Shown here: positions 1 to 12,617 of the stretch, piece after piece
Layout of the letters: every line of letters begins with the position of its first letter
Numbering within the stretch: position 1 is the stretch's first letter
NCBI GenBank assembly: GCA_041671645.1
Contig: JBAZBD010000001.1
Span: 21,561-85,560, forward strand
Length of the DNA stretch: 64,000 bases
Source: Patescibacteria group bacterium
GTDB taxonomy: Bacteria; Patescibacteriota; UBA1384; XYA2-FULL-43-10; 1-14-0-10-43-13
Direction: 5' to 3'
The notes under the pieces: generated by a model
The model's input: only the letters and a program-made list of their open reading frames with translations
Told to the model about the DNA's origin: nothing
Databases searched by the model: none
Program-made: the position numbers and the translations under genes

Positions 1-2
1 TA

Positions 3-932
3 GTGATCGGCGGACTCTGCCTTTTCGAGACGATCTCGAGCATCGATAACGCCATTATCAACGCTGAAGTTCTGACGACGATGGGCCAGCGGGCAAGAAA
101 ATGGTTTATGTCGTGGGGATTAATTTTCGCTGTATTTGGTGTACGCGGTCTCCTGCCCTGGATTATCGTCTGGGCAGTCAATCCATACCTTGGCCCAATC
201 GGAGCGCTGACCGCTACCTTTAGCTCTGACCCACAAATTAAATTAGCGATCGAACTATCTTCTCCGATGCTGTTAGCGGGAGGCGGTATTTTCTTGGTCT
301 TTCTATTCTTCCATTGGCTCTTTCTCGAGGAGAAAAACTTTGGCCTGCCAAGGGCAGAGCAGTTTTTCATGCAAAACGGCGTTTGGTTTTACGCTCTTAT
401 CTCCATAATCCTGACAGTCGTTGTGTCTATGACAGTCAAGGAAGATCCCATGCTAGCTCTTGGAGCGGTAGTTGGATCGACAGCCTTCTTCATCACTCAC
501 GGCTTCAAACAAAATGCTGAAAGAAGCGAAGCGAGTTTGATGTCCAGAAACAACGGCTTATCGGATATTTCCAAAATTCTATATCTTGAGATTATCGACG
601 CCACTTTCTCGGTCGACGGAGTACTCGGCGCCTTCGCCTTCACGCTAGCTGTTCCTCTGATCTTACTTGGTAATGGTGTTGGCGCATTGGTGGTCCGACA
701 GTTGACCTTGAACAATATCGACAAGATCAAGAAGTATATTTACCTCAAAAACGGAGCGATGTATTCTATCCTAATCCTCGGTGCAATCATGCTCTTTGAC
801 GGCCTTGGAGCTGAGATTCCACAATGGCTCTCTCCTGTCTCAACATTCGCAATTGTCGGGTACTTCTTCTATAGATCCAAAAAAGCAATTCCTGCCATGA
901 CGCCTCCTCCAGTCATGACTCAAGCCATATGA
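3..932 (+). CDS. DUF475/TerC-like integral membrane protein (5' end outside window)
   Basis: ORF is open from the window edge. It is polytopic and hydrophobic, with DUF475-like motifs (YLEIIDATFSVDGVLGAFAFT). Its stop overlaps the next start (ATGA). Confidence 0.5.
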   Translation: MIGGLCLFETISSIDNAIINAEVLTTMGQRARKWFMSWGLIFAVFGVRGLLPWIIVWAVNPYLGPIGALTATFSSDPQIKLAIELSSPMLLAGGGIFLVFLFFHWLFLEEKNFGLPRAEQFFMQNGVWFYALISIILTVVVSMTVKEDPMLALGAVVGSTAFFITHGFKQNAERSEASLMSRNNGLSDISKILYLEIIDATFSVDGVLGAFAFTLAVPLILLGNGVGALVVRQLTLNNIDKIKKYIYLKNGAMYSILILGAIMLFDGLGAEIPQWLSPVSTFAIVGYFFYRSKKAIPAMTPPPVMTQAI

Positions 933-1792
933 ACTCTCCTATTTTGCTGGCTCTCCTGGCGCTAATATTACTCGGACTTTCGAGCGCTTTTGCCAAGAAA
1001 CCGACCGACAAAATTGGAGCGACAAAAGTGATGATCTTCCGTGGTCTGTTTAACGTAGTTATATTGGGCGTAATTCTGATTTTCAATTTTCCGTCCTCAT
1101 TTTCGTGGACAGATCTGCCAGTTGCGATACTAATTTCCGCCCTTGGGTATTTCCCCCTGCTCTTCTTCCTCAAGGCTCTCAAAGTCGGGAAAATGGGAAT
1201 TGTCAGCCCAGTTTCCTCTTCGTACGGGCTGATTACGGCATTATTGGCGGTCGTCTTTTATCATGAAAAATTAAATGGGCTTCAGCTCTTTGGCATTCTG
1301 GCCGTTGTGATAGGAATCATTCTAGTTTCAATCAACTTCCGTGATTTCAAGAATTCGCATCTCTTTGACCGACAAAGCGGTATCGGCCTAGCGCTATTGG
1401 CCGCGCTACTTTGGGGAATATATTTCTTTCTGATCAAGATACCGACCCAACATTTCGGGACATATTTCACCTCGTTCTTGGTCGAGGCAGTAATATTGAT
1501 TTCCGCCTTGGTCTCGCTAATATTTGCCAAAGAATTTGATCTCAAATTGCCTGATCGTATGACAGCTTCATACCTATTCCTAGTTTCGATCACCGTTTCA
1601 GTTGGGGTATTGTTCTTCTACCAAGCACTCAACACCGGCTCGGTCGCGATTGTATCGGCGATCGGCTCCTCGACTCCCTTGATCGTAACTCTATACGGTG
1701 CTATCTTCATGAAGGAACGACTCAAACTTCAACAATACTGTGGTATGGCAATAATATTAATTGGAATAATCGGATTGGCAGTTACAAAATGA
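929..1792 (+). CDS. DMT/EamA-family transporter (10 TMS)
   Basis: 287 aa, two EamA-like halves of hydrophobic helices. Coupled by overlap to the upstream and downstream genes. Confidence 0.7.
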   Translation: MNSPILLALLALILLGLSSAFAKKPTDKIGATKVMIFRGLFNVVILGVILIFNFPSSFSWTDLPVAILISALGYFPLLFFLKALKVGKMGIVSPVSSSYGLITALLAVVFYHEKLNGLQLFGILAVVIGIILVSINFRDFKNSHLFDRQSGIGLALLAALLWGIYFFLIKIPTQHFGTYFTSFLVEAVILISALVSLIFAKEFDLKLPDRMTASYLFLVSITVSVGVLFFYQALNTGSVAIVSAIGSSTPLIVTLYGAIFMKERLKLQQYCGMAIILIGIIGLAVTK

Positions 1793-2406
1793 AAAATAAT
1801 ATTGAGAAAATTTTTGACTTCCTCAGGACTTCTGAAAGATTGAAATATACCAAAAGATGGAAGAATACTCCGAGTATGGTGAACAAAGAAACAAGCGCGG
1901 ATCATTCATGGCATTTGGCGCTGCTGCTTATCGTGTTGACCGAAGAAAATGATTTCAAATTGGACGTCCATAAGGCCCTGAAAATGGCTCTGACCCATGA
2001 CCTCGTCGAAGCAATCGCCGACGATACAGACGCCTCCTTGATCCATTTCGGTATCACCACCAAAAAGAAAAAGTACGAGGCTGAATTAAAGGCTATAGAA
2101 GAAATAAAAAAGATGCTACCAAGCAAATCAGGCAAAGCCATGTACGATCTCTGGATGGAGTACGAAATTTCTGAGACGGAAGAATCAAAATTTGTGAAGG
2201 CTCTCGATAAGATCGAGGGCATCAACCATATGCTTTGCGAAACAGACAAATGCTTTGATACACCAGATTTAATAGCCCCTTATCCGAGAGAATCAGTCGA
2301 GAAATATCCTGCTCTAAAATATGTTTACCAAGAGCTTCTCAAGCGTCTTAAGCCTGAATACAAAAAGCATAAATGGGAGTGGAAAGATTCTTACAATATC
2401 GAATAG
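1789..2406 (+). CDS. HD-domain phosphohydrolase (YfbR-like 5'-deoxynucleotidase family)
   Basis: H..H and HD motifs (DHSWHLALL ... THDLVEAIADD), characteristic of YfbR-like HD hydrolases. Confidence 0.7.
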   Translation: MKNNIEKIFDFLRTSERLKYTKRWKNTPSMVNKETSADHSWHLALLLIVLTEENDFKLDVHKALKMALTHDLVEAIADDTDASLIHFGITTKKKKYEAELKAIEEIKKMLPSKSGKAMYDLWMEYEISETEESKFVKALDKIEGINHMLCETDKCFDTPDLIAPYPRESVEKYPALKYVYQELLKRLKPEYKKHKWEWKDSYNIE

Positions 2407-3195
2407 ATGAAAAGAGAATTGAAGAAAATCTTAGATTTCTTGGTCGAGACGGAGAAGCTGAAACTCATCGAGCGGATTCCCGTCCTTTCCGACAAGATCC
2501 GTCGTGAGAATGATGCTGAACACTCTTGGCATCTGGCTTTGATGGTGATGGCCCTCAAGGATAAGTTGGGGCTCGATTTTGATCTCGAAAAAGCGCTCCA
2601 GATCGCCCTAGTCCACGATCTGCCAGAGATTTATACCGGTGATACCTGGCCGTCAGACGAAAAAGAGAAGAAGGAAAAATCAGAGAAAGAAAAATTATCA
2701 GCCAATAAAATCTTTGCTCTTTTGCCCGAAGAGGAGTGTGAAAAGTTCACACAACTTTGGCAAGAATACGAAGACGGAAAAACTATCGAAGCCAAAATCG
2801 TCAAAGCTCTCGACAAGATCTGCTATTCGATGCAATTTTCAATCTCCAACAATATTGTCTACTTCGACAAGGACTCAGGCCATACACGGCGCAAGGAATA
2901 CGCCGAACCGCATCTGCAATTTAATGAAACTTTGACAGAAATTTTTGATTATTTCTCCGAGAAAATCAATCAAGAACCTCAGCCAGCAATTAAACCTGGC
3001 AAATATAGGCATTTCAAAGGGAATCATTATCGGGTCATCAGCACGGGCAAACACTCAGAAACTGGTGAAGAGATGGTAGTCTACACTCCTCTATATCAAT
3101 CAGAGACCAAGATCTGGATTCGTCCCGCCTCTATGTTCTTTGAGGAAGTTGGATCGAACGGTCAAACCACCAAAAGATTTACTTTTTTGGGATAA
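2407..3195 (+). CDS. HD-domain phosphohydrolase fused to C-terminal DUF1653
   Basis: N-terminal half is paralogous to the previous gene (EHSWHLALMV ... VHDLPEIYTGD). C-terminal KPGKYRHFKGNHYRVI...EEMVVYTPLY...WIRPASMFFEEV matches the DUF1653 pattern. Confidence 0.65.
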   Translation: MKRELKKILDFLVETEKLKLIERIPVLSDKIRRENDAEHSWHLALMVMALKDKLGLDFDLEKALQIALVHDLPEIYTGDTWPSDEKEKKEKSEKEKLSANKIFALLPEEECEKFTQLWQEYEDGKTIEAKIVKALDKICYSMQFSISNNIVYFDKDSGHTRRKEYAEPHLQFNETLTEIFDYFSEKINQEPQPAIKPGKYRHFKGNHYRVISTGKHSETGEEMVVYTPLYQSETKIWIRPASMFFEEVGSNGQTTKRFTFLG

Positions 3196-3211
3196 ATTTT
3201 CTCCAAATAAA

Positions 3212-3247
3212 AACGCCTCGATGCAATATCGAGACGTTCGGTTTTTA
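3212..3247. terminator. Rho-independent terminator (bidirectional hairpin)
   Basis: 11-bp stem aacgcctcgat/atcgagacgtt with one mismatch and loop gcaat. T-run follows on + and A-run precedes it, so it also terminates on -. Confidence 0.4.
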
Positions 3248-3460
3248 GGGTCCAGAGATCTGGAATTGGCCTTCGTGATACAGGCCCGATCTATCATTCC
3301 ACCAAGCGACGATGACATTCGGAGCGTCACCAGGCCCCAGATAGACGACTTCCGGTTTATCCGGTCGATGGTCCGCCAAAGCAGGTCCGCTGAGCTGATC
3401 CACAAGATGCATGCTGGGCAACTCGCGAACCCTGTACGGTGGTTGTTGCGGTAACGCCAT
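3245..3460 (-). CDS. small hypothetical protein (72 aa) in GC-rich island
   Basis: ATG is preceded by GGAGG with an 8-nt spacer (ACGGAGGAAATTACCATGGCG). About 56% GC versus roughly 45% locally. Lies between two terminators. No recognisable domain. Confidence 0.3.
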   Translation of the reverse strand: MALPQQPPYRVRELPSMHLVDQLSGPALADHRPDKPEVVYLGPGDAPNVIVAWWNDRSGLYHEGQFQISGP

Positions 3461-3492
3461 GGTAATTTCCTCCGTTAGTATTTTCATAACAC

Positions 3493-3530
3493 AAAAACTG
3501 GCTCGAGTCAAAGCTCTGAGCCAGTTTTTT
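3493..3530. terminator. Rho-independent terminator downstream of ppsA (bidirectional)
   Basis: Stem ctggctc/gagccag flanked by A-run and T-run (aaaaactggctc...gagccagtttttt). Confidence 0.5.
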
Positions 3531-3547
3531 CGAGAGATTAGATTTTT

Positions 3548-5878
3548 CTAGCGATCTATGATGTTACCGAGTAATATTCTTTTTTCGACTGAAGCAATGA
3601 CTTTGCGGGTCTGGAAGACGACATCAGGAGTGACAGAGACGGAGGTCGTACCAGCGCGTACCATCATCTCGGTAATTTCAGGATAGACGCTTGGCGCTTG
3701 ACCGCAGATCGAGCAAGTAACAGAGTGCTTACGACAAGTCTTGATGATATATTCGAGCGAAAGCCTGACGGCTTCGTCGCGTTCATCGAAGATCTTGGCC
3801 AATGTCTGATTGTCACGATCAACCCCGAGAGTAAGCTGGGTCAAATCGTTGGATCCAATAGAGATGCCATCAATGCCGAGGGCAATGAATTTTTCGAGCA
3901 ATATGACGTTGGAGGGGATTTCGCACATCATCCAGATTTTGAAATCTGGCCCCTGCTTCAACCCACCCTTTTCAATTAATTTCATGCACTCTGCCATCTC
4001 GGTAGTGGTGCGGACGAAAGGAATCATAATCCAGAGATTCTTCAGATCAAATTCCTCGCGAACCTTCTTGATTGCCTCAAGTTCAAGTGCGAACATTTCC
4101 GGCTCAGCGATATATCGAGAAGCTCCACGATAACCGATCATCGGATTGTCTTCGACAGGTTCGTATTTCTCGCCGCCCTTGAGCCCGCGATATTCATTGG
4201 TTTTGAAGTCGGTAGCACGATATACCACCGGACGTGGCGCAAAAGCGCCAGCGATCGTCTTCAAGCCGTCTACAAGGGCTTGGACATAATCTTTGCCTCT
4301 CCCATCGGCTACCATTGCTTTGGGATGCTCGCCAATGTTGGCAATCATAAATTCTGCGCGGAGCAATCCAACGCCGTCGACTGGTAAGGCAGCCACCTTT
4401 TCGGCCATTTCTGGCTCTCCCAAATTGACATAAACTTTGGTCCCAGTGATCGGGACTTCTTCGACGAGCGCTGAGCCCTTGGCGGATGCATCCGCTGGGC
4501 CAGGGACAGGGGCTGAAGCGACTTTGACGTTTCCCTTGTAAACCAATCCCTTGGCGCCATCAACTGTGATCATCTGACCAGTTTTCAAAGTAGAAGTAGC
4601 TGTGCCAGTGCCAACTACACAAGGAATGCCAAGTTCGCGTGAAACGATGGCGGCGTGACAAGTTCTGCCACCGGTATCGGTCACAATGCCCTTGGCTTTT
4701 TTCATAGCTGGGACAAAATCTGGGGTTGTCATTTCAGTCACCAGTATGTCGCCCTCCATCACTTTGTCTATTTCGGTTGGTTTGTGGATTATCTTGACTG
4801 GGCCAGAAGCTGATCCCATAGAGGCGGCCGCACCATGAAGAATGACCTCTAGTTTGTCGGCAGTTTGGGGTTGGGAGTCGGCAGTTTTTTCTCCTGACTC
4901 CTGACTTTTGACGCCTGACTTTCCTAGTGTCGTGATTGGACGAGATTGAACAAAATAGACCGTGTCATTCTCTATCGCCCATTCTGTATCCTGAGGCTTG
5001 CCGTAATGTTTCTCGATTGCCATGCCAATCTTGGCTAACTCTAGGATTTGGTCATCGGTAATCTTCTGTTTTGATTGAAAATCCTTGGCGACCGAAACAT
5101 GTTTGTCCCCGCCATCCTTCTTGTGAACAATCTTCCAAGTCTGAGTATTGACCTCCTTGGCCGAAATCTTGAATTCCTTCTTGTCGACGATATAACGGTC
5201 AGGTGTGACCGAGCCAGAAACGATCGCCTCGCCAAGCCCATAACCCGCTTCGACGATCAAGTGGTCCATGTCTTCGTCAACTGGATCGACAGTGAAGAGA
5301 ATACCTGATTTCTCTGACTGAATCATGTTTTGGACAACAGCACAAAGGCCGACCTTCATATGGTCGAATTTGTTAATCAGACGATAATAAATAGCACGAG
5401 CCTCGAAAAGAGAGGCGAAGCACTCGAGAACTGCTTTGGCGACTTGGTCTTTGCTCTGCATATTGAGAAAGGTAGCTTGCTGTCCAGCAAATGAAGCCTC
5501 TGGCAAATCTTCGGCCGTGGCGCTAGAGCGAACAGCGACCGCGAAGCCACCAAGTTTGGTGTATGAGTCTTTGATCTCTGTCTCAAGATCCTTGGGTAGT
5601 GGAGTCTTCAGCATCAACTTCTTGATCTCCTTGGACACAACATTTAGCTTCTTGTTGTCCTCGGGATTGAGACCCTTCAAATACCCGGTAATTTTATTTT
5701 TAATTCCTGTCTTTTCCAGGTAATAAAAATAGGCTTGGGCTGTGACGCAAAAGCCTTGTGGAACGGGAATCCCCGCTCGAGTCATCTCGCCAAGATTGGC
5801 GCCCTTGCCACCTACCTGTGGAATAAAGCTCTTGTCGATCTCTTTAAACCAAAGAATATTTGCCGATTTCTTGGCCAT
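3548..5878 (-). CDS. ppsA: phosphoenolpyruvate synthase (pyruvate, water dikinase)
   Basis: 776 aa. N-terminal PEP-synthase ATP-binding region (VGGKGANLGEM), mobile His domain (TGGRTCHAAIVSRELGIPCVVG) and C-terminal PEP-utilising TIM-barrel. Confidence 0.85.
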   Translation of the reverse strand: MAKKSANILWFKEIDKSFIPQVGGKGANLGEMTRAGIPVPQGFCVTAQAYFYYLEKTGIKNKITGYLKGLNPEDNKKLNVVSKEIKKLMLKTPLPKDLETEIKDSYTKLGGFAVAVRSSATAEDLPEASFAGQQATFLNMQSKDQVAKAVLECFASLFEARAIYYRLINKFDHMKVGLCAVVQNMIQSEKSGILFTVDPVDEDMDHLIVEAGYGLGEAIVSGSVTPDRYIVDKKEFKISAKEVNTQTWKIVHKKDGGDKHVSVAKDFQSKQKITDDQILELAKIGMAIEKHYGKPQDTEWAIENDTVYFVQSRPITTLGKSGVKSQESGEKTADSQPQTADKLEVILHGAAASMGSASGPVKIIHKPTEIDKVMEGDILVTEMTTPDFVPAMKKAKGIVTDTGGRTCHAAIVSRELGIPCVVGTGTATSTLKTGQMITVDGAKGLVYKGNVKVASAPVPGPADASAKGSALVEEVPITGTKVYVNLGEPEMAEKVAALPVDGVGLLRAEFMIANIGEHPKAMVADGRGKDYVQALVDGLKTIAGAFAPRPVVYRATDFKTNEYRGLKGGEKYEPVEDNPMIGYRGASRYIAEPEMFALELEAIKKVREEFDLKNLWIMIPFVRTTTEMAECMKLIEKGGLKQGPDFKIWMMCEIPSNVILLEKFIALGIDGISIGSNDLTQLTLGVDRDNQTLAKIFDERDEAVRLSLEYIIKTCRKHSVTCSICGQAPSVYPEITEMMVRAGTTSVSVTPDVVFQTRKVIASVEKRILLGNIIDR

Positions 5879-5899
5879 AACCCCTCCGTTTTCTATAAT

Positions 5900-6343
5900 T
5901 TAAAATTTTGTTTTTTCTAATACACTTTTGATCGTGCCGTAGTCAAATCCTCGAGCCATCATAAAGCGGATTAATTTTTCTTTGGCGTTTTCTTTGGATC
6001 CGTTCTTCTTGATCCACCGTTCAACTAATTCGCCAGCTCTTTCGCTCTCGTCCTCCTCTGACACTTCAGCTAGACCTGCTTTGATCAAAGCATCATCTAT
6101 CTTGAGGCACTGCAATCGAAATTTGATTCGAGTCGTTCCGCGCCCCATATTTTGCTGGCTTCTGATATAGCTGGAGACAAATCTCTCGTCATCAAGCAAT
6201 TTCGTCTCTTTCAACTTTGCGATGACCGCTTCTGTCTCATCCGCAAAAAACCCCTTCAATTTCATCTTTTGTCTGACTTCACCCTCACTCCGGTCACGGA
6301 TTTTTATCAAGTTCAGGGCGTAATTTAGCGGCGAATATTTCAT
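5900..6343 (-). CDS. recX: RecA regulator RecX
   Basis: 147 aa helical-repeat protein immediately downstream of recA. RecX-like N-terminus (ALNLIKIRDRSEGEVRQKM). Confidence 0.75.
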   Translation of the reverse strand: MKYSPLNYALNLIKIRDRSEGEVRQKMKLKGFFADETEAVIAKLKETKLLDDERFVSSYIRSQQNMGRGTTRIKFRLQCLKIDDALIKAGLAEVSEEDESERAGELVERWIKKNGSKENAKEKLIRFMMARGFDYGTIKSVLEKTKF

Positions 6344-6354
6344 ATCCTCTAACT

Positions 6355-6375
6355 CCTCTCCTTTTCAAGGAGAGG
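6355..6375 (-). promoter_or_regulatory. recA-recX intergenic stem-loop (possible attenuator) just upstream of recX RBS
   Basis: 7-bp stem cctctcc/ggagagg with 7-nt loop. The 3' arm overlaps a GGAG-type RBS for recX. Confidence 0.3.
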
Positions 6376-6398
6376 TTGGGTGAGGTTAATGTTGAATT

Positions 6399-7457
6399 TT
6401 AATTTTGCTTGTCGGACTCGACTTTGTCGGCGGCTACTTTTTCTAGAATTTTGGCTTTGATTTCTTCAGTGATCTTGGGATTTTGTTTCAGAAATGCGCG
6501 ACCGCCCTCTTTGCCCTGGCCTAGTTTCTCGCCATTGTATGAAAGCCATGATCCGGCTTTGTCGACAATGCCTTTGTTGACTCCCAAATCCAAAACTTCA
6601 CCTTCATAATCAATTCCAGTGCCGAACATAATATCGAATTCGGCCATTTTGAAAGGCGGAGCAACTTTGTTTTTCACTACCTTGACTGTGACGTTGTTGC
6701 CGACGTTATCATCTCCCTGCTTCAAGGTCGCTTTGCGGCGGATGTCGAGACGGACTGAGGCATAAAACTTGAGCGCGTTACCACCGGTCGTCGTCTCAGG
6801 ATTTCCGAACATGACACCGATCTTCATACGAATCTGGTTGATAAAGATAAGAATGGTTTTGGATTTGCTAACAGCGCCAGTCAACTTGCGAAGTGCTTGT
6901 GACATTAATCTGGCCTGGACACCCATCATAGAGTCGCCCATCTCACCTTCAATTTCAGCACGTGGGACAAGAGCTGCTACTGAGTCAACTACGATAACGT
7001 CAAGCGCGTTTGAGCGTACCAGAGTTTCGCAAATTTCCAAAGCCTGCTCGCCATTGTCTGGCTGGGAAATTAGAAGATCGTCGAGATTGACACCGATTCT
7101 CTTGGCATATTCAGGGTCAAAAGCGTGTTCAGCATCAATAAAAGCACAGTATCCGCCAGTTTTCTGAGACTGGGCGATGGTGTGGATCGCAAGTGTTGTC
7201 TTACCGGATGACTCTGGACCGTAGATTTCGACAACTCGTCCGCGTGGCAAACCGCCAACGCCAAGAGCCAGGTCAAGCGATAGGGAGCCAGTCGAAATGG
7301 CGTCAACCTTGTATGAACCAGTGTCAGACATGGTCATGATTGCACCCTTGCCGAACTGCTTCTCAATTGTCAGAAGTGCAGATTTGAGCGCTTCATTCTT
7401 TCCCAACTCCATATTTGATATTTGTTTTTCTTCTTTTGTTGCTTCCTTCTTGGCCAT
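6399..7457 (-). CDS. recA: recombinase RecA
   Basis: Walker [10 protein letters not shown], RecA L1/L2 regions, 352 aa. Confidence 0.95.
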
Positions 7458-7489
7458 GGCAGTCCTTCCAGTCTTAATTTCTCTAAATA

Positions 7490-8197
7490 TTATTGATTTG
7501 TGTTCAAATTGATAAGCGCCGTTTTGGGTTTGTATTCGATTGTCAAAACTTCGCTTGTTTGCTTCTTGGCCTTATTGACCGCCTCGACTTTGATCACATT
7601 GACACCTTTGTGGAGTTTAACATCGCTGATGAAGTGGCCGTCATTGGTAATCGGAATAACCTCCTGATTTATCCGAAGAACCGCGTCGATATCAGCGACG
7701 CCGGCGATTTCGATGCTGTCGTCTTCAAAAATCTGGTTGTTGCCAGGAGAAGTGATCTTCAAATCTGGTGTACCGGCAAAACCGCGAACCTGGTAGCTGA
7801 TATAACCAAAAAATGCAGCAATCAAAACAACCGCAGCGACATAGCCTAGCAGTTTCGGGGTAATCAAAATCGGCACATCTTTGATTGTTCTTTTGTATGA
7901 TAAATTATGAACTGACTCTTTTTTGTACAGTTTCTTCTCTCGGTCGAAAAGACCGAGTGCTTCGCTCACATTTAGACCAATAAATTTGGAGTAGGCCATC
8001 ACAAAACCGCGGACATGGACAGACGAAGGAAGGTCACCCCAATCGTCCTTCTCCAGCGAAACGAGATATTTTGCCTTAACTTTTGAGCCGGTTTCGGCTT
8101 CCTCGATCGAGATATTCTTTGATTCGCGACCACACTTAAGCATCTCCCCCAGGGTCAAATCAGTCGCCACTTTTCTTTTTGAAAAACCTTTTACCAT
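7490..8197 (-). CDS. RodZ-like HTH membrane protein
   Basis: N-terminal XRE-type HTH ([20 protein letters not shown] ... [14 protein letters not shown]), a single TM, and a C-terminal DUF4115-like domain. Start chosen at the internal Met to avoid overlap with ftsK. Confidence 0.55.
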
Positions 8198-8201
8198 TGT
8201 G

Positions 8202-10544
8202 TTAAATCTTTTCGTCCTCTGGATAATCTTTGGAACTGTCATAAGTGCTACGGTATTCCGGTGTAAATCCGGTCGAAACCTGGCTCATCCCGCCTCCAGA
8301 CATTTCGTCGACCAAAACATCACGAGGCTTGGCGCCGTCTGGCGGTCCGATCACTCCGTTCTCCTCTAGTATATCGAGTAATCGTGCTGCTCTGGCATAG
8401 CCTACCTTAAGCCGACGCTGGAGTAAAGATGCGCTTGCCTTGCCAGCCGCTACGACAGTGTCGACAGCATCATTGTATAGGTCATCCTCGCTTGCTCCAT
8501 TGACTGAATTGCCGGATGATCCGTTGCGGCTAGCCCCAAAATTTGTGACTAGCTCATTGTACTGTGGCTCTGCTTGATCCTTTAGGAATTTTGTTACTTC
8601 CTCAATCTCTGGGTCAGAAACATAACAACCCTGGATACGTCGAGGCTTCTGGCCAGCGGCCATGTAGAGCATATCTCCGAATCCAAGTAATTTCTCAGAG
8701 CCAGAGACGTCCAAGATTGTGCGAGAGTCAACTTGGGAAGCGGTAGCAAAAGCAATTCTCGATGGGACATTGGCCTTGATCAAACCTGTCAAAACGTCAA
8801 CTGAAGGGCGCTGGGTCGCGATAATCAAATGCATCCCAGTCGCTCGAGCCATTTGGGCCAAACGAACGATCGAGCCTTCAACTTCTTTGGCAGAGGTTGC
8901 CATCAGATCGGCCAACTCATCGATAATAATTACAATGTAAGGCAATTTGCCCTCTGGCCCCGGATCAGAGTTGTAGGCGATAATATTGCGTTTGCCCAAT
9001 TCAGAAAACATCTTGTAGCGTCTTTCCATCTCCCAGACAGCCCATTTTAGCGCAGAAACCGTCTTGTCCACCTCAGTGACTACAGGAGTTAGAAGGTGCG
9101 GGATACTATTGTATCCAGTCAATTCAACACGCTTCGGGTCAACCAGAAGGATTTTTAGCTCCGCCGGAGAATTGTTGTAAAGCAGAGTCACGATGATAGT
9201 GTTGATACAAACTGATTTGCCCGAACCTGTCGCACCAGCGATCAGGATATGGGGCATTTTCTCGAGATCTATCGCTACCGGCTCCCCGGCTACGTCACGA
9301 CCAAGAGCTAGAGCAAGTTTGCTCTTCACGGCCGAGAATTGAGGTGCGTTCAAGATTTCACGCAGTGTAACTTTGGCAGAAACCTTATTTGGGATTTCGA
9401 TACCGACGGCGTTCTTGCCAGGGATTGGCGCTTCGATACGGATACTCTTGGCAGATAGCGCCAGAGCCAAATCATTCTGTCGAGCCACAATTTGATTTAA
9501 TTTGACGCCCTCTTTTGGCTTGATCGTATATTGAGTCACAGTCGGGCCTACATTGGCATCGCCCAAAGTAATATCCATGCTGAAGGTCTTGAGACAATTT
9601 TGGATCGCCTCGGCGTTTTTGTAAATATTGCCCGGATTCGCAACCTCGTCTAATTCTTTCAAGATTTTAATATCTGGGTATTTCCAAGCTACGCCAGGTT
9701 TGGCTGGGGTCTTAGGCGTGCGGTCTTCGGCAATTTCGAGAACTTGAGCGCGATTGACTTCCTCAAATTTGGGTGGTTTGCGGAAACCAAATCTTCTTCT
9801 AACGGCCTCAAAGACAGAAACTTTGGCGCTTGGCTGAGCCGCCTGGGCGCCGCTGTTGTTGATGTTGAGCTTGGGCCCAGTCTTGGCCTCTTCGCCCTCC
9901 TCCGACCGCTTGACGCCAAAAAGCTCCAGGATGGAAAACCCGAAGATCATAATAAGCGAGATCGCAATGAAAGCGACTGTGAGTAAAAATGTCGGGAAAA
10001 GACCGATCGCTCCCCTGAGAGGTCCAGAAATCAAATTACCAATTTCTCCGCCATAACCGCCCCTGGCGGCTACTTCCTTGGAGATATCGACGGGGATGAA
10101 TAGATGGAGGAAGGTCGGTAATGACAATAGAAGAAGGAAAATTCCGAAGAATTCAGCAACTCTGTAGCCGATTTTGCCCTTTTTGTCCTTCGGAGGGACC
10201 ATCAAACGATATGCGACGAATATAAATGAGATATCGAAGACAACTCCGCCGAATTTTCCAAACAGCCTGTAAATCACATTGGACAAGCCTTCGCCGATCG
10301 AGCCGGCTCGGCCGAAGAATCCAAGGAGGATGGTGACGCCAAGAATTAGCATTAGGATCGAAAAGATAAGCCGCCAAATTTCTTTGGGCAAGCCGAGAGA
10401 CCAATCGAAAACAAAATTGCCCCATTCGTCTTCCCTCTGATACCAGCGTCTGGTTGGTTTGTTTTTTGGATGAATTCTTTTTCTGCCCAATTTTCCCTCT
10501 TTGTGCACTCTATTATTTTTGAAAACTTTCCAGCATAACAACAA
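8202..10544 (-). CDS. ftsK: DNA translocase FtsK/SpoIIIE
   Basis: N-terminal TM segments, motor domain with Walker A (GATGSGKSVCIN), C-terminal gamma (winged-helix) domain. Confidence 0.85.
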   Translation of the reverse strand: MLLCWKVFKNNRVHKEGKLGRKRIHPKNKPTRRWYQREDEWGNFVFDWSLGLPKEIWRLIFSILMLILGVTILLGFFGRAGSIGEGLSNVIYRLFGKFGGVVFDISFIFVAYRLMVPPKDKKGKIGYRVAEFFGIFLLLLSLPTFLHLFIPVDISKEVAARGGYGGEIGNLISGPLRGAIGLFPTFLLTVAFIAISLIMIFGFSILELFGVKRSEEGEEAKTGPKLNINNSGAQAAQPSAKVSVFEAVRRRFGFRKPPKFEEVNRAQVLEIAEDRTPKTPAKPGVAWKYPDIKILKELDEVANPGNIYKNAEAIQNCLKTFSMDITLGDANVGPTVTQYTIKPKEGVKLNQIVARQNDLALALSAKSIRIEAPIPGKNAVGIEIPNKVSAKVTLREILNAPQFSAVKSKLALALGRDVAGEPVAIDLEKMPHILIAGATGSGKSVCINTIIVTLLYNNSPAELKILLVDPKRVELTGYNSIPHLLTPVVTEVDKTVSALKWAVWEMERRYKMFSELGKRNIIAYNSDPGPEGKLPYIVIIIDELADLMATSAKEVEGSIVRLAQMARATGMHLIIATQRPSVDVLTGLIKANVPSRIAFATASQVDSRTILDVSGSEKLLGFGDMLYMAAGQKPRRIQGCYVSDPEIEEVTKFLKDQAEPQYNELVTNFGASRNGSSGNSVNGASEDDLYNDAVDTVVAAGKASASLLQRRLKVGYARAARLLDILEENGVIGPPDGAKPRDVLVDEMSGGGMSQVSTGFTPEYRSTYDSSKDYPEDEKI

Positions 10545-10602
10545 ATTGGAATACCGAGTGCATTCTCCTTTAATTATAGATCAAAGCAAATCTCAGCGCA
10601 AC

Positions 10603-10635
10603 AAAAAGGAACTGTATTCCTACAGTTCCTTTTTG
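10603..10635. terminator. Rho-independent terminator after rnj (bidirectional)
   Basis: aaaaaggaactgta-ttcc-tacagttccttttt: perfect 9-bp stem flanked by A-run and T-run. Confidence 0.55.
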
Positions 10636-10655
10636 TATTGTTACCAAGATTCTAT

Positions 10656-12617
10656 TTAGACCTCGATAATGACTGGGATGATCATTGGCTTTCGCTCTGT
10701 CTCTTTGAAGAGATAATCGCCGAGTTCGTCACGAAGCTTTTGTTTGGCCACAGTATAGTCAGGTTTGCCCTTACCAGGCGCAGTATATTTGACGAAAATT
10801 CGCTTGACCTCTGCTCTGGCCTTGTGGACCAAGTCTTCGCTCTCACGCATGTAGATGAAGCCTCGAGAAATAATATCTGGTGAGGTCAGGATCTGACCTG
10901 TCTGGTGATTAACTGTGACGATGATGACGAAGATACCATCTTCTGCCATCGCTTTTCGATCACGAAGCACGATGTTTCCAACGTCGCCGACGCCCAAACC
11001 GTCAACCATGACGTAGGATGCAGGAACTCTCTTGTTGGTGACTTCGCCCTTGCCATTTGAGAATTCGATCACTTGACCGTCATCTCCGACTAGACAGTGA
11101 GCTTCGTCGACGATGCCCATCTCCCTAGCAATCTGGCAGTGAAGCATAAGTTTGTGACGCTCTCCGTGGAAAGGAATCAGATATTTTGGTTTGATCAAGG
11201 CGAGCATTAGTTTCAAATCCTCCTGATTGGCGTGGCCAGAGGTGTGAACATCCATCAATCTCTGATAAATGACCTGGGCACCAGTACGGAACAAACTGTC
11301 CATCAGGCTAGAAACTGCTCGCTCGTTGCCAGGAATTGGAGAAGAAGAAAGGATAACAAGGTCGCCCTTCTTCATTTTCACATTTCGATCTTCGCCATTG
11401 GCGATACGAGTCAGAGCGGCATTATCTTCACCCTGTGAGCCGGTGCAGACAACGACAACACGATCGTCGGCATATTTGCCAAGATCTTTGACATCAATCA
11501 TGGTGTCTTTTGGCAAAAATAAAGCTTCAAGCGAAAGTGCGATCTCAACAGTTTTGACCATGCTTCGTCCGACAAAACAAACCTTGCGGTTCAATTTCTT
11601 CGAGACATTTAGGACTTGCTGGATACGACCGATCAGAGTTGAGAATGTTGAGACAATAATTCTATTATCACATCTCTCCATAATCGACATCAGAGAATCT
11701 TCGAGAACTTTCTCGGAGATGGAAACGCCTGGTTTCTCAATATTTGTTGATTCTGAAAGCATTACAAGTGGCTTTCGAGCGCCAATCATGGCGAGTCCCG
11801 AAAAATCAGCCGGTTTACCATCAGCTGGAGTATGATCAAATTTGAAGTCTCCAGTCACAACGATGACGCCCTCAGGACTGGTAATACAAAATCCCATTGC
11901 CTGAGGGATAGAGTGGTTGACCTTGAAAGTTTCAATTTTGAAACAGCCAAGCTGGAGAGTGTCTTCTCCGATTTTCATCGAGGACATTTTGACTTTGTTG
12001 TCTAGACCAAATTCCTCAAGTTTGCTCTTGATAATTCCGAGAGTCAAAGGAGCTGAATAAATGGTCGGTGAGCCAAGTTTCTCATAAACGTAAGGAATGG
12101 CGCCAATATGGTCCAGGTGGCCATGAGTGATCAGCAGTCCTCGGATCTTCGACTTGTTTTGCTCCAAATAAGAAACATCAGGGATGACATAGTCAACGCC
12201 TGGCATAGTCTCGTCTGGGAACATGAAACCCATGTCGATAATAATAATATCGTTTTTGTACTCGATCACGGTGGTATTTTTGCCACCGGTTTCTTCAACA
12301 CCGCCGAGTGGGATGATCTTCAATTTTGGTTCGTAAAAAAACTTCGATTTGTAATTGTCATCGATCTGCTGAGCAGTGAAGCGGGGTTCGCCCTGAGCAG
12401 GCTCCTTGCGAGCAGTATCTTCCTTCTTCGGCTCAACCTTTTGAGCTGTGTATCTTGGCTCTGGGTTGTTGCCCTTTGGAGCCAAATTGATAGAGCGTCG
12501 AAATTCGTGTCTAGGCGAGTGCGCCTCCACGATATCGTGCTTTAGGGCCGCGTCCAACGGACTTGTTTTGATTGGTTTAGAGTTCATTGGATTCTGTGTT
12601 TTAATTTGTTCATTCAT
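10656..12617 (-). CDS. rnj: ribonuclease J with about 95-aa N-terminal low-complexity extension
   Basis: Metallo-beta-lactamase motif HGHLDHIG, beta-CASP and RNase J C-terminal domain. N-terminal extension contains an internal repeat (PRYTAQKVEP / PRFTAQQIDD). Confidence 0.85.
   Translation of the reverse strand: MNEQIKTQNPMNSKPIKTSPLDAALKHDIVEAHSPRHEFRRSINLAPKGNNPEPRYTAQKVEPKKEDTARKEPAQGEPRFTAQQIDDNYKSKFFYEPKLKIIPLGGVEETGGKNTTVIEYKNDIIIIDMGFMFPDETMPGVDYVIPDVSYLEQNKSKIRGLLITHGHLDHIGAIPYVYEKLGSPTIYSAPLTLGIIKSKLEEFGLDNKVKMSSMKIGEDTLQLGCFKIETFKVNHSIPQAMGFCITSPEGVIVVTGDFKFDHTPADGKPADFSGLAMIGARKPLVMLSESTNIEKPGVSISEKVLEDSLMSIMERCDNRIIVSTFSTLIGRIQQVLNVSKKLNRKVCFVGRSMVKTVEIALSLEALFLPKDTMIDVKDLGKYADDRVVVVCTGSQGEDNAALTRIANGEDRNVKMKKGDLVILSSSPIPGNERAVSSLMDSLFRTGAQVIYQRLMDVHTSGHANQEDLKLMLALIKPKYLIPFHGERHKLMLHCQIAREMGIVDEAHCLVGDDGQVIEFSNGKGEVTNKRVPASYVMVDGLGVGDVGNIVLRDRKAMAEDGIFVIIVTVNHQTGQILTSPDIISRGFIYMRESEDLVHKARAEVKRIFVKYTAPGKGKPDYTVAKQKLRDELGDYLFKETERKPMIIPVIIEV

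Follow-up and report, generated by a model that had tools for sequence, protein, structure and literature searches.

The window, a 64-kb stretch of DNA, contains two convergent genes on either side of positions 3196-3547. The plus-strand one, which encodes an HD_3/YfbR-like phosphohydrolase with a fused DUF1653, extends to 3195; the minus-strand one is ppsA, a PEP-synthase-like gene for the domains PPDK_N, PEP-utilizers and PEP-utilizers_C, and has its end at 3548. A further minus-strand gene, here called ORF71 (3245..3460; ATG 3460-3458, stop TAA 3247-3245), lies between them and was delimited from the ORF list, its homologues and its codon usage; PEVVYLGPGDAPNVIVAWWNDR is an example of its peptide. 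The interval had been described as a 350-bp spacer between convergent terminators with a 72-aa minus-strand ORF. The hairpins, the ORF and the quoted peptide are present, but the product has 71 aa and not 72, and the spacer is not empty, the order on the minus strand being ppsA, hairpin T2, ORF71 and hairpin T1, with the HD operon converging from the plus strand. T2 is located upstream of ORF71 on the strand of ORF71 itself. The plus-strand side (1789-3195) consists of two tandem HD_3/YfbR-like phosphohydrolase paralogues, the second of which (2407-3195) has the C-terminal DUF1653.

Two good intrinsic terminators had been reported around the ORF, and both were found, T1 at 3211-3239 and T2 at 3498-3524, each combining a GC-containing stem-loop with a U-run on the transcribed strand, as expected of rho-independent terminators. 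T1, which would be common to ORF71 on the minus strand and the HD/DUF1653 operon on the plus strand, was called by the terminator scan on the minus strand with 12 pairs and the tail TTATTTGG; it has -16.9 kcal/mol (z -4.69) on that strand, and in the plus orientation, where GGTTTTT follows, the value is -11.4 kcal/mol (z -2.16). On the minus strand, T2 serves as the intrinsic terminator for ppsA. It spans 3493..3530 with its flanking A-run (3493-3497) and T-run (3525-3530); its arms form a perfect inverted repeat of 12 nt, and the U-run behind them is UUUUU when read on the minus strand and UUUUUU when read on the plus strand. Of its two folding energies, -20.6 kcal/mol (z -4.78) belongs to the minus strand, and the second is -21.5 kcal/mol (z -4.4). 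Flanked by A- and T-runs, both hairpins look bidirectional.

Homologues and start codon of ORF71

A word-indexed search of 5.8 billion protein clusters returned only self matches (the Logan 71-aa and NCBI 52-aa versions of ORF71). Two homologues, both hypothetical proteins, were found by other means. The first, P0005 (67 aa), came from an exhaustive HMMER search of 1.84 billion representatives (E 2.1e-5 library-wide) and is encoded on a 511-bp metagenome contig (ENA ERZ18662010 scaffold_244885; locus L039). It is 43% identical to ORF71 across ORF71 residues 18-70 (53 aa), and both proteins have the FQISG C-terminus. The second, P0007 (65 aa; CAYOQP010000005.1 / JGI 3300059473; locus L007), belongs to a Berkelbacteria-like MAG, is 28% identical to ORF71 and was spotted by reading the DNA 3' of ppsA in 15 related genomes, where its ORF, in the orientation of ppsA, comes after the terminator of that gene and is introduced by AAAGGAGGAAGCC-ATG. 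Among the 37 ppsA loci searched, the HMM found L007 alone, after the detection by eye, and tblastn missed it. P0007 matches P0005 with a pairwise E of 9e-9 and the ORF71+P0005 profile with an hhalign E of 7e-6 (probability 84%); direct BLAST gave no match between ORF71 and P0007, and the link between these two is transitive via P0005 and the profile, plus synteny.

All three align over their full length as complete proteins of 65-71 aa, Met1 and the C-terminus included, and have in common the motifs [FY][RH]V, [HN][VL]xD[QE][VL], L, P, E[VI]xx[VL]G, D, [IV]V and W. Their genes are also alike in having an upstream hairpin, a GGAGG ahead of the aligned Met1 and a downstream terminator. P0007 shares with ORF71 the slot after ppsA, and its leader in L007 exceeds that of ORF71 by some 50 nt. 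Unlike ORF71 and the L007 gene, the P0005 gene has behind it, in translational coupling, the frame of a 44-aa peptide (L039 338-472, plus strand) with one predicted transmembrane segment, whose stop TAG is inside TAGGAGGAAACAATG and after which a terminator is found at 460-483; this membrane peptide has no counterpart in the window or in L007. The family amounts to three clusters among the 5.8 billion, and scans of metagenome contigs and viral contigs with the family alignments gave no further members. As judged from these searches, ORF71, P0005 and P0007 form a very rare orphan small-protein family, apparently present in a few bacteria of the candidate phyla radiation (CPR) only, with three detectable members, two of which occupy the same slot after recA-recX-ppsA in Berkelbacteria-like CPR genomes.

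Other candidates were rejected. These include the long repeat proteins P0003, P0004 and P0006 from the search of representatives, whose E-values were summed over repeats; P0006, with the motif WWGNRTGVFHQG, reached an hhalign probability of only 7.9% against the family profile. P0009 (1147 aa) is unrelated as well, and its connection appears to be a clustering artefact of the 90%-identity cluster of P0002, which holds the NCBI 52-aa protein. By eye, P0009 is RHS/YD-repeat-like, with no Pfam match.

The textbook ribosome-binding site that had been noted ahead of ORF71 is confirmed by reading the sequence, with GGAGG at 3469..3473 on the minus strand and an 8-nt spacer, AAATTACC, to the ATG. The same GGAGG precedes the aligned Met in both homologues, as AAGGAGGCTAGTTATG in L039 and AAAGGAGGAAGCCATG in L007. 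The NCBI, JGI and Logan pipelines each call a gene in the frame of ORF71, and their starts differ, with 52 aa from a GTG in NCBI (MFA6963117.1), 71 aa from ATG 3460 in Logan and 80 aa from ATG 3487 in JGI. Residues 9-17 of ORF71 (YRVRELPSM) align with FHVGGIQA and FRVKGITA of the homologues, and the NCBI call begins only after these conserved residues. The ATG of the JGI call falls within a conserved non-coding block (described below), and L039 has ATA at this place, which is no start codon. Because of the alignment of residues 9-17, the location of the 80-aa ATG in the conserved block and the ATA in L039, the homologues together with the Shine-Dalgarno sequence support the 71-aa start (ATG 3460) over the 52-aa and the 80-aa ones. 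ORF71 is therefore an already annotated hypothetical gene with a mis-started CDS.

Coding signal and RNA structure

The codon-position identities of the three family pairs (positions 1/2/3) are 0.51/0.61/0.34, 0.43/0.57/0.31 and 0.46/0.57/0.39, as obtained from a protein-guided alignment, which is biased toward positions 1 and 2. The order of constraint is position 2 > 1 > 3, with third positions near random, which fits coding constraint given that the alignment was guided by the protein. The coding DNA of the window and that of L039 are about 49% identical. In the window, the annotated frame of ORF71 outranks the other five in codon log-odds, with a score equalled or exceeded by only 2.6% of off-frame segments of real genes.

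The whole-codon log-odds of ORF71, however, ranks low, at the 3rd percentile when set against in-frame segments of genes from this genome, as could be expected of a spurious ORF or of what is left of a longer, decayed gene, and the missing family annotation and the conflicting pipeline starts (52, 71 and 80 aa) point in the same direction. A decayed remnant, the scenario by which the earlier note would have been overturned, is not supported by the two full-length homologues of 65-67 aa, whose starts and ends align with those of ORF71 and which have Shine-Dalgarno sequences of their own. Neither does any significant match to a longer protein hold, those of P0003, P0004 and P0006 being repeat-summed, and the ORFs in alternative frames are without Pfam match. 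A spurious or decayed ORF is thus considered very unlikely.

The same region had also been put forward as a possible structured ncRNA. Such an element, an sRNA or cis-regulatory RNA that is open in a frame by chance, would account for a GC-rich, hairpin-bounded segment with more than one open frame, and the DNA best conserved with L039 is indeed non-coding, consisting of the 3' arm of the hairpin and TTTTTGTGTTATRAAAA. However, a permissive Rfam scan of 3000-3800, a check that the note had proposed, found no family at gathering score, the best being SpF36 (28 vs 48 bits) and STnc450 (22.8 vs 37), and these sub-threshold matches fall on the T2 terminator hairpin only, as look-alikes of a terminator. 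A scan of the homologous loci L039/L042 likewise gave nothing credible. Folding of the 256-nt body of the island gave no better minimum free energy than dinucleotide-shuffled sequence, with z -0.65 and -0.45 for the two strands. What is conserved is the protein, third positions being nearly randomised, together with the Shine-Dalgarno sequence and start codon. With this evidence, an RNA gene is extremely unlikely.

The openness of several frames had been taken as a sign of structured RNA or foreign DNA. It is literally true of the ORF71 region, where two sense frames lack stops and an antisense frame contains just one. As 24% of codon shuffles of ORF71 are equally open in multiple frames, this openness carries no signal. 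The small protein gene, which was the other half of the first alternative in the note, has held up, with homologues, synteny and a coding pattern. Taken together with the evidence on its origin that follows, ORF71 is regarded as a real, native protein-coding gene with a probability of roughly 85%.

Base composition and the slot after ppsA

A GC content of about 56% had been given for the whole island. This does not apply to the interval 3196-3547, which has 48.9% GC, a value reached by 18% of windows of that length across the 64 kb; it does apply to ORF71 alone, with 56.8% (top 0.3% of 213-nt windows). The GC content of first codon positions is extreme (GC1 0.69, top 0.4%), and that of third positions is ordinary (GC3 0.577 vs 0.496 +/- 0.073 in the window, within 1.1 sd, with 14% of segments having this value or higher). 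The GC excess lies in the first positions because the protein is 14% proline, rich in glutamine and poor in lysine and isoleucine. Compared to the genes of the window, ORF71 has 14.1% vs 3.8% Pro, 7.0% vs 2.6% Gln, 1.4% vs 7.9% Lys, 2.8% vs 8.6% Ile and 0% vs 5.2% Thr, and it is also poor in Phe. The look of an island is a by-product of this amino-acid composition and not of foreign origin. Similarly, the homologous gene in L007 is GC-rich, with 56.9% vs 40.9% for its locus.

Foreign codon usage had been suggested along with horizontal acquisition, and the comparison of codons and composition turned out otherwise, the synonymous usage of ORF71 being native (mean ln RSCU 0.051 vs 0.041 +/- 0.041 in the genes of the window, 59th percentile) and its GC3 not atypical. 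A syntenic homologue is also at odds with this suggestion. The window has the order recA-recX-ppsA-[ORF71], facing HD/DUF1653-HD-EamA, and L007/L040-42 has HTH_25-recA-(hyp)-recX-ppsA-[ORF65], facing EamA-HD-HD, with a PpsA in L007 that is 73% identical to that of the window. The synteny comparison, which the note had also proposed, hence places the homologue in the same slot after ppsA in L007/L040-42; the genomic position of the family was compared in the window and L007/L040-42, the 511-bp contig of L039 being unplaced.

At least 12 other relatives, with a PpsA 69-77% identical and a contig that continues past ppsA, are without the ORF71 gene, from which it follows that the gene is dispensable or often lost; their lack of it speaks against a simple vertical descent. 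In the closest relative by PpsA, L002 (97% identical), the contig CAZGJE010000097.1 ends inside ppsA. The slot 3' of ppsA is variable among Berkelbacteria-like genomes. L003, L011 and L027 encode a membrane protein there, L004 has DUF1653 as a separate gene on the opposite strand (8391-8615), directly after ppsA, and unrelated GC-rich small ORFs are found in L008 (8460-8648, minus strand, 57% GC vs 39% for the genome), L033 (6645-6797, plus strand, 57% vs 40%) and L031 (8405-8695, plus strand, 48% vs 39%). The stand-alone copy in L004 suggests that DUF1653 is a mobile module tied to the HD cluster. Additional observations in this slot are that one of the three small ORFs encodes a very basic 50-aa peptide, that L013 has short tandem ATAGAATAT-type repeats and then a tRNA-like sequence (~8330-8560), and that L012 has CAATAG/GATAG-type repeats (~8340-8440).

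Horizontal acquisition of ORF71, as a small foreign island between ppsA and the HD operon, would agree with its GC content in the top 0.3% of windows, with its absence after ppsA in most relatives, and with the closest homologue (43%) being found on the unplaced 511-bp contig, closer than the syntenic one (28%); that other relatives have small ORFs there which are GC-rich and unrelated also indicates a variable site. Against it are the native synonymous codon usage and ordinary GC3, with a GC excess that comes from the amino acids, the identical syntenic position of the L007 homologue, and an upstream hairpin and motif that are homologous between loci. Furthermore, no direct repeats bracket ORF71 (short chance repeats only), no tRNA is found in positions 1-12000, and no integrase, transposase or other insertion signature is present at ORF71, whose neighbours are housekeeping genes. 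A foreign origin is accordingly judged unlikely, and ORF71 would be a true small protein gene that stands alone and has been inherited vertically.

Upstream region, predicted product and biological meaning

The hairpin upstream of the P0005 gene in L039 is homologous to T2, with one compensatory change in the stem (CTGGC/GCCAG to CCGGC/GCCGG). A hairpin with 6-bp arms in L039 (CTCGAT...ATCGAG, 22-39) was also considered as an equivalent of T1 and rejected as a palindrome coincidence without U-run. Next to T2 is the conserved non-coding block TTTTTGTGTTATGAAAA (3481..3497, minus strand), which consists of the U-tract of T2 and GTGTTAT (3486-3492), occurs once in the window and is identical to L039 91-107 (TTTTTGTGTTATAAAAA) at 16 of 17 positions. 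The only blastn match between the window and L039 (25/28) is at this hairpin and block, which are better conserved than the coding DNA, and the module in both loci is a hairpin, then TTTTTGTGTTAT[G/A]AAAA, 7-8 nt and GGAGG. GTGTTAT is also present upstream of the L007 ORF, at 8383. The sequence TG-T-TAT(GAA/AAA/CCT) fits an extended -10 element, and a scan of the three loci (window, L039 and L007) for consensus sigma-70 promoters found no full canonical promoter. The block may serve as an extended -10-like promoter (TGtTATgaa) or as a different 5' signal.

From this arrangement, ORF71 would be a stand-alone gene directly behind T2, the intrinsic terminator of ppsA. Its transcription would most likely start from the weak extended -10-like promoter in TTTTTGTGTTATGAAAA, abutting T2, or else result from read-through of T2. 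In the case of the promoter, the candidate transcription start is about 7 nt downstream of TGTTATGAA, near 3477. Translation would then proceed from the strong GGAGG and ATG 3460, and the transcript would presumably end at the bidirectional T1, shared with the convergent HD-phosphohydrolase operon.

The ORF71 product has a predicted mass of 7.9 kDa, a pI of 5.35 and a net charge at pH 7 of -3.2, and the homologues are similarly acidic (P0005, pI 4.16 and -8.2; P0007, pI 4.85 and -4.3). All three are hydrophilic, and inspection of their sequences showed neither Cys pairs nor a hydrophobic segment of transmembrane length. With two sequences, AF2 gave a pLDDT of 54.7, and with three sequences a pLDDT of 80.4 and a pTM of 0.66. 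The three-sequence model places strands at residues 14-24, 37-43, 48-55 and 61-69; it is provisional, as there is disagreement among the five models, whose pLDDT varies from 44 to 80. The product is thus predicted to be a small, acidic, soluble, all-beta unit of 4-5 strands.

ORF71 had no match above threshold in Pfam, NCBIfam, PHROGs, PADLOC, PDB sequences or solved folds; in PHROGs and PADLOC, P0005 had no match either and P0007 matched only at E 0.24 to 0.4. Membership of DUF2158 (PF09926; YodC-like) was rejected. This family is similar in being small (~50-60 aa) and functionally uncharacterised, and residues 35-64 of P0005 align weakly to profile positions 17-46 of 50; the difference is that the match is below the cut-off (14.8 vs 22.3 bits, E 0.024) and confined to P0005, with none at E <= 10 for ORF71 and P0007. 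A WD40-type propeller blade, as in the designed Ika4/Ika8 (PDB 6g6o/6g6q), was also rejected, as its 3-5 bits per repeat faded after adding the third member.

The best guess, held with low confidence, is that ORF71 encodes a dispensable protein-binding accessory or regulator, because of its size, its acidity and the lack of catalytic or nucleic-acid-binding signatures; by the same guess it would not be an enzyme, a toxin or an RNA. A small protein this acidic is not expected to bind nucleic acids or to be catalytic. A novel small beta fold with a functional link to ppsA or recA-recX and a 5' element of its own seems improbable as a reading of ORF71, and the repeated position after ppsA is a weak lead and not a finding.

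For annotation, the starts in GenBank (MFA6963117.1, 52 aa, GTG) and JGI (80 aa) stand against the supported start of the 71-aa protein. As a caution for similar cases, a GC peak in a low-GC CPR genome can arise purely from the composition of a proline-rich small protein. ORF71 would be one more uncharacterised, lineage-restricted small protein among the "hypotheticals" of the CPR.
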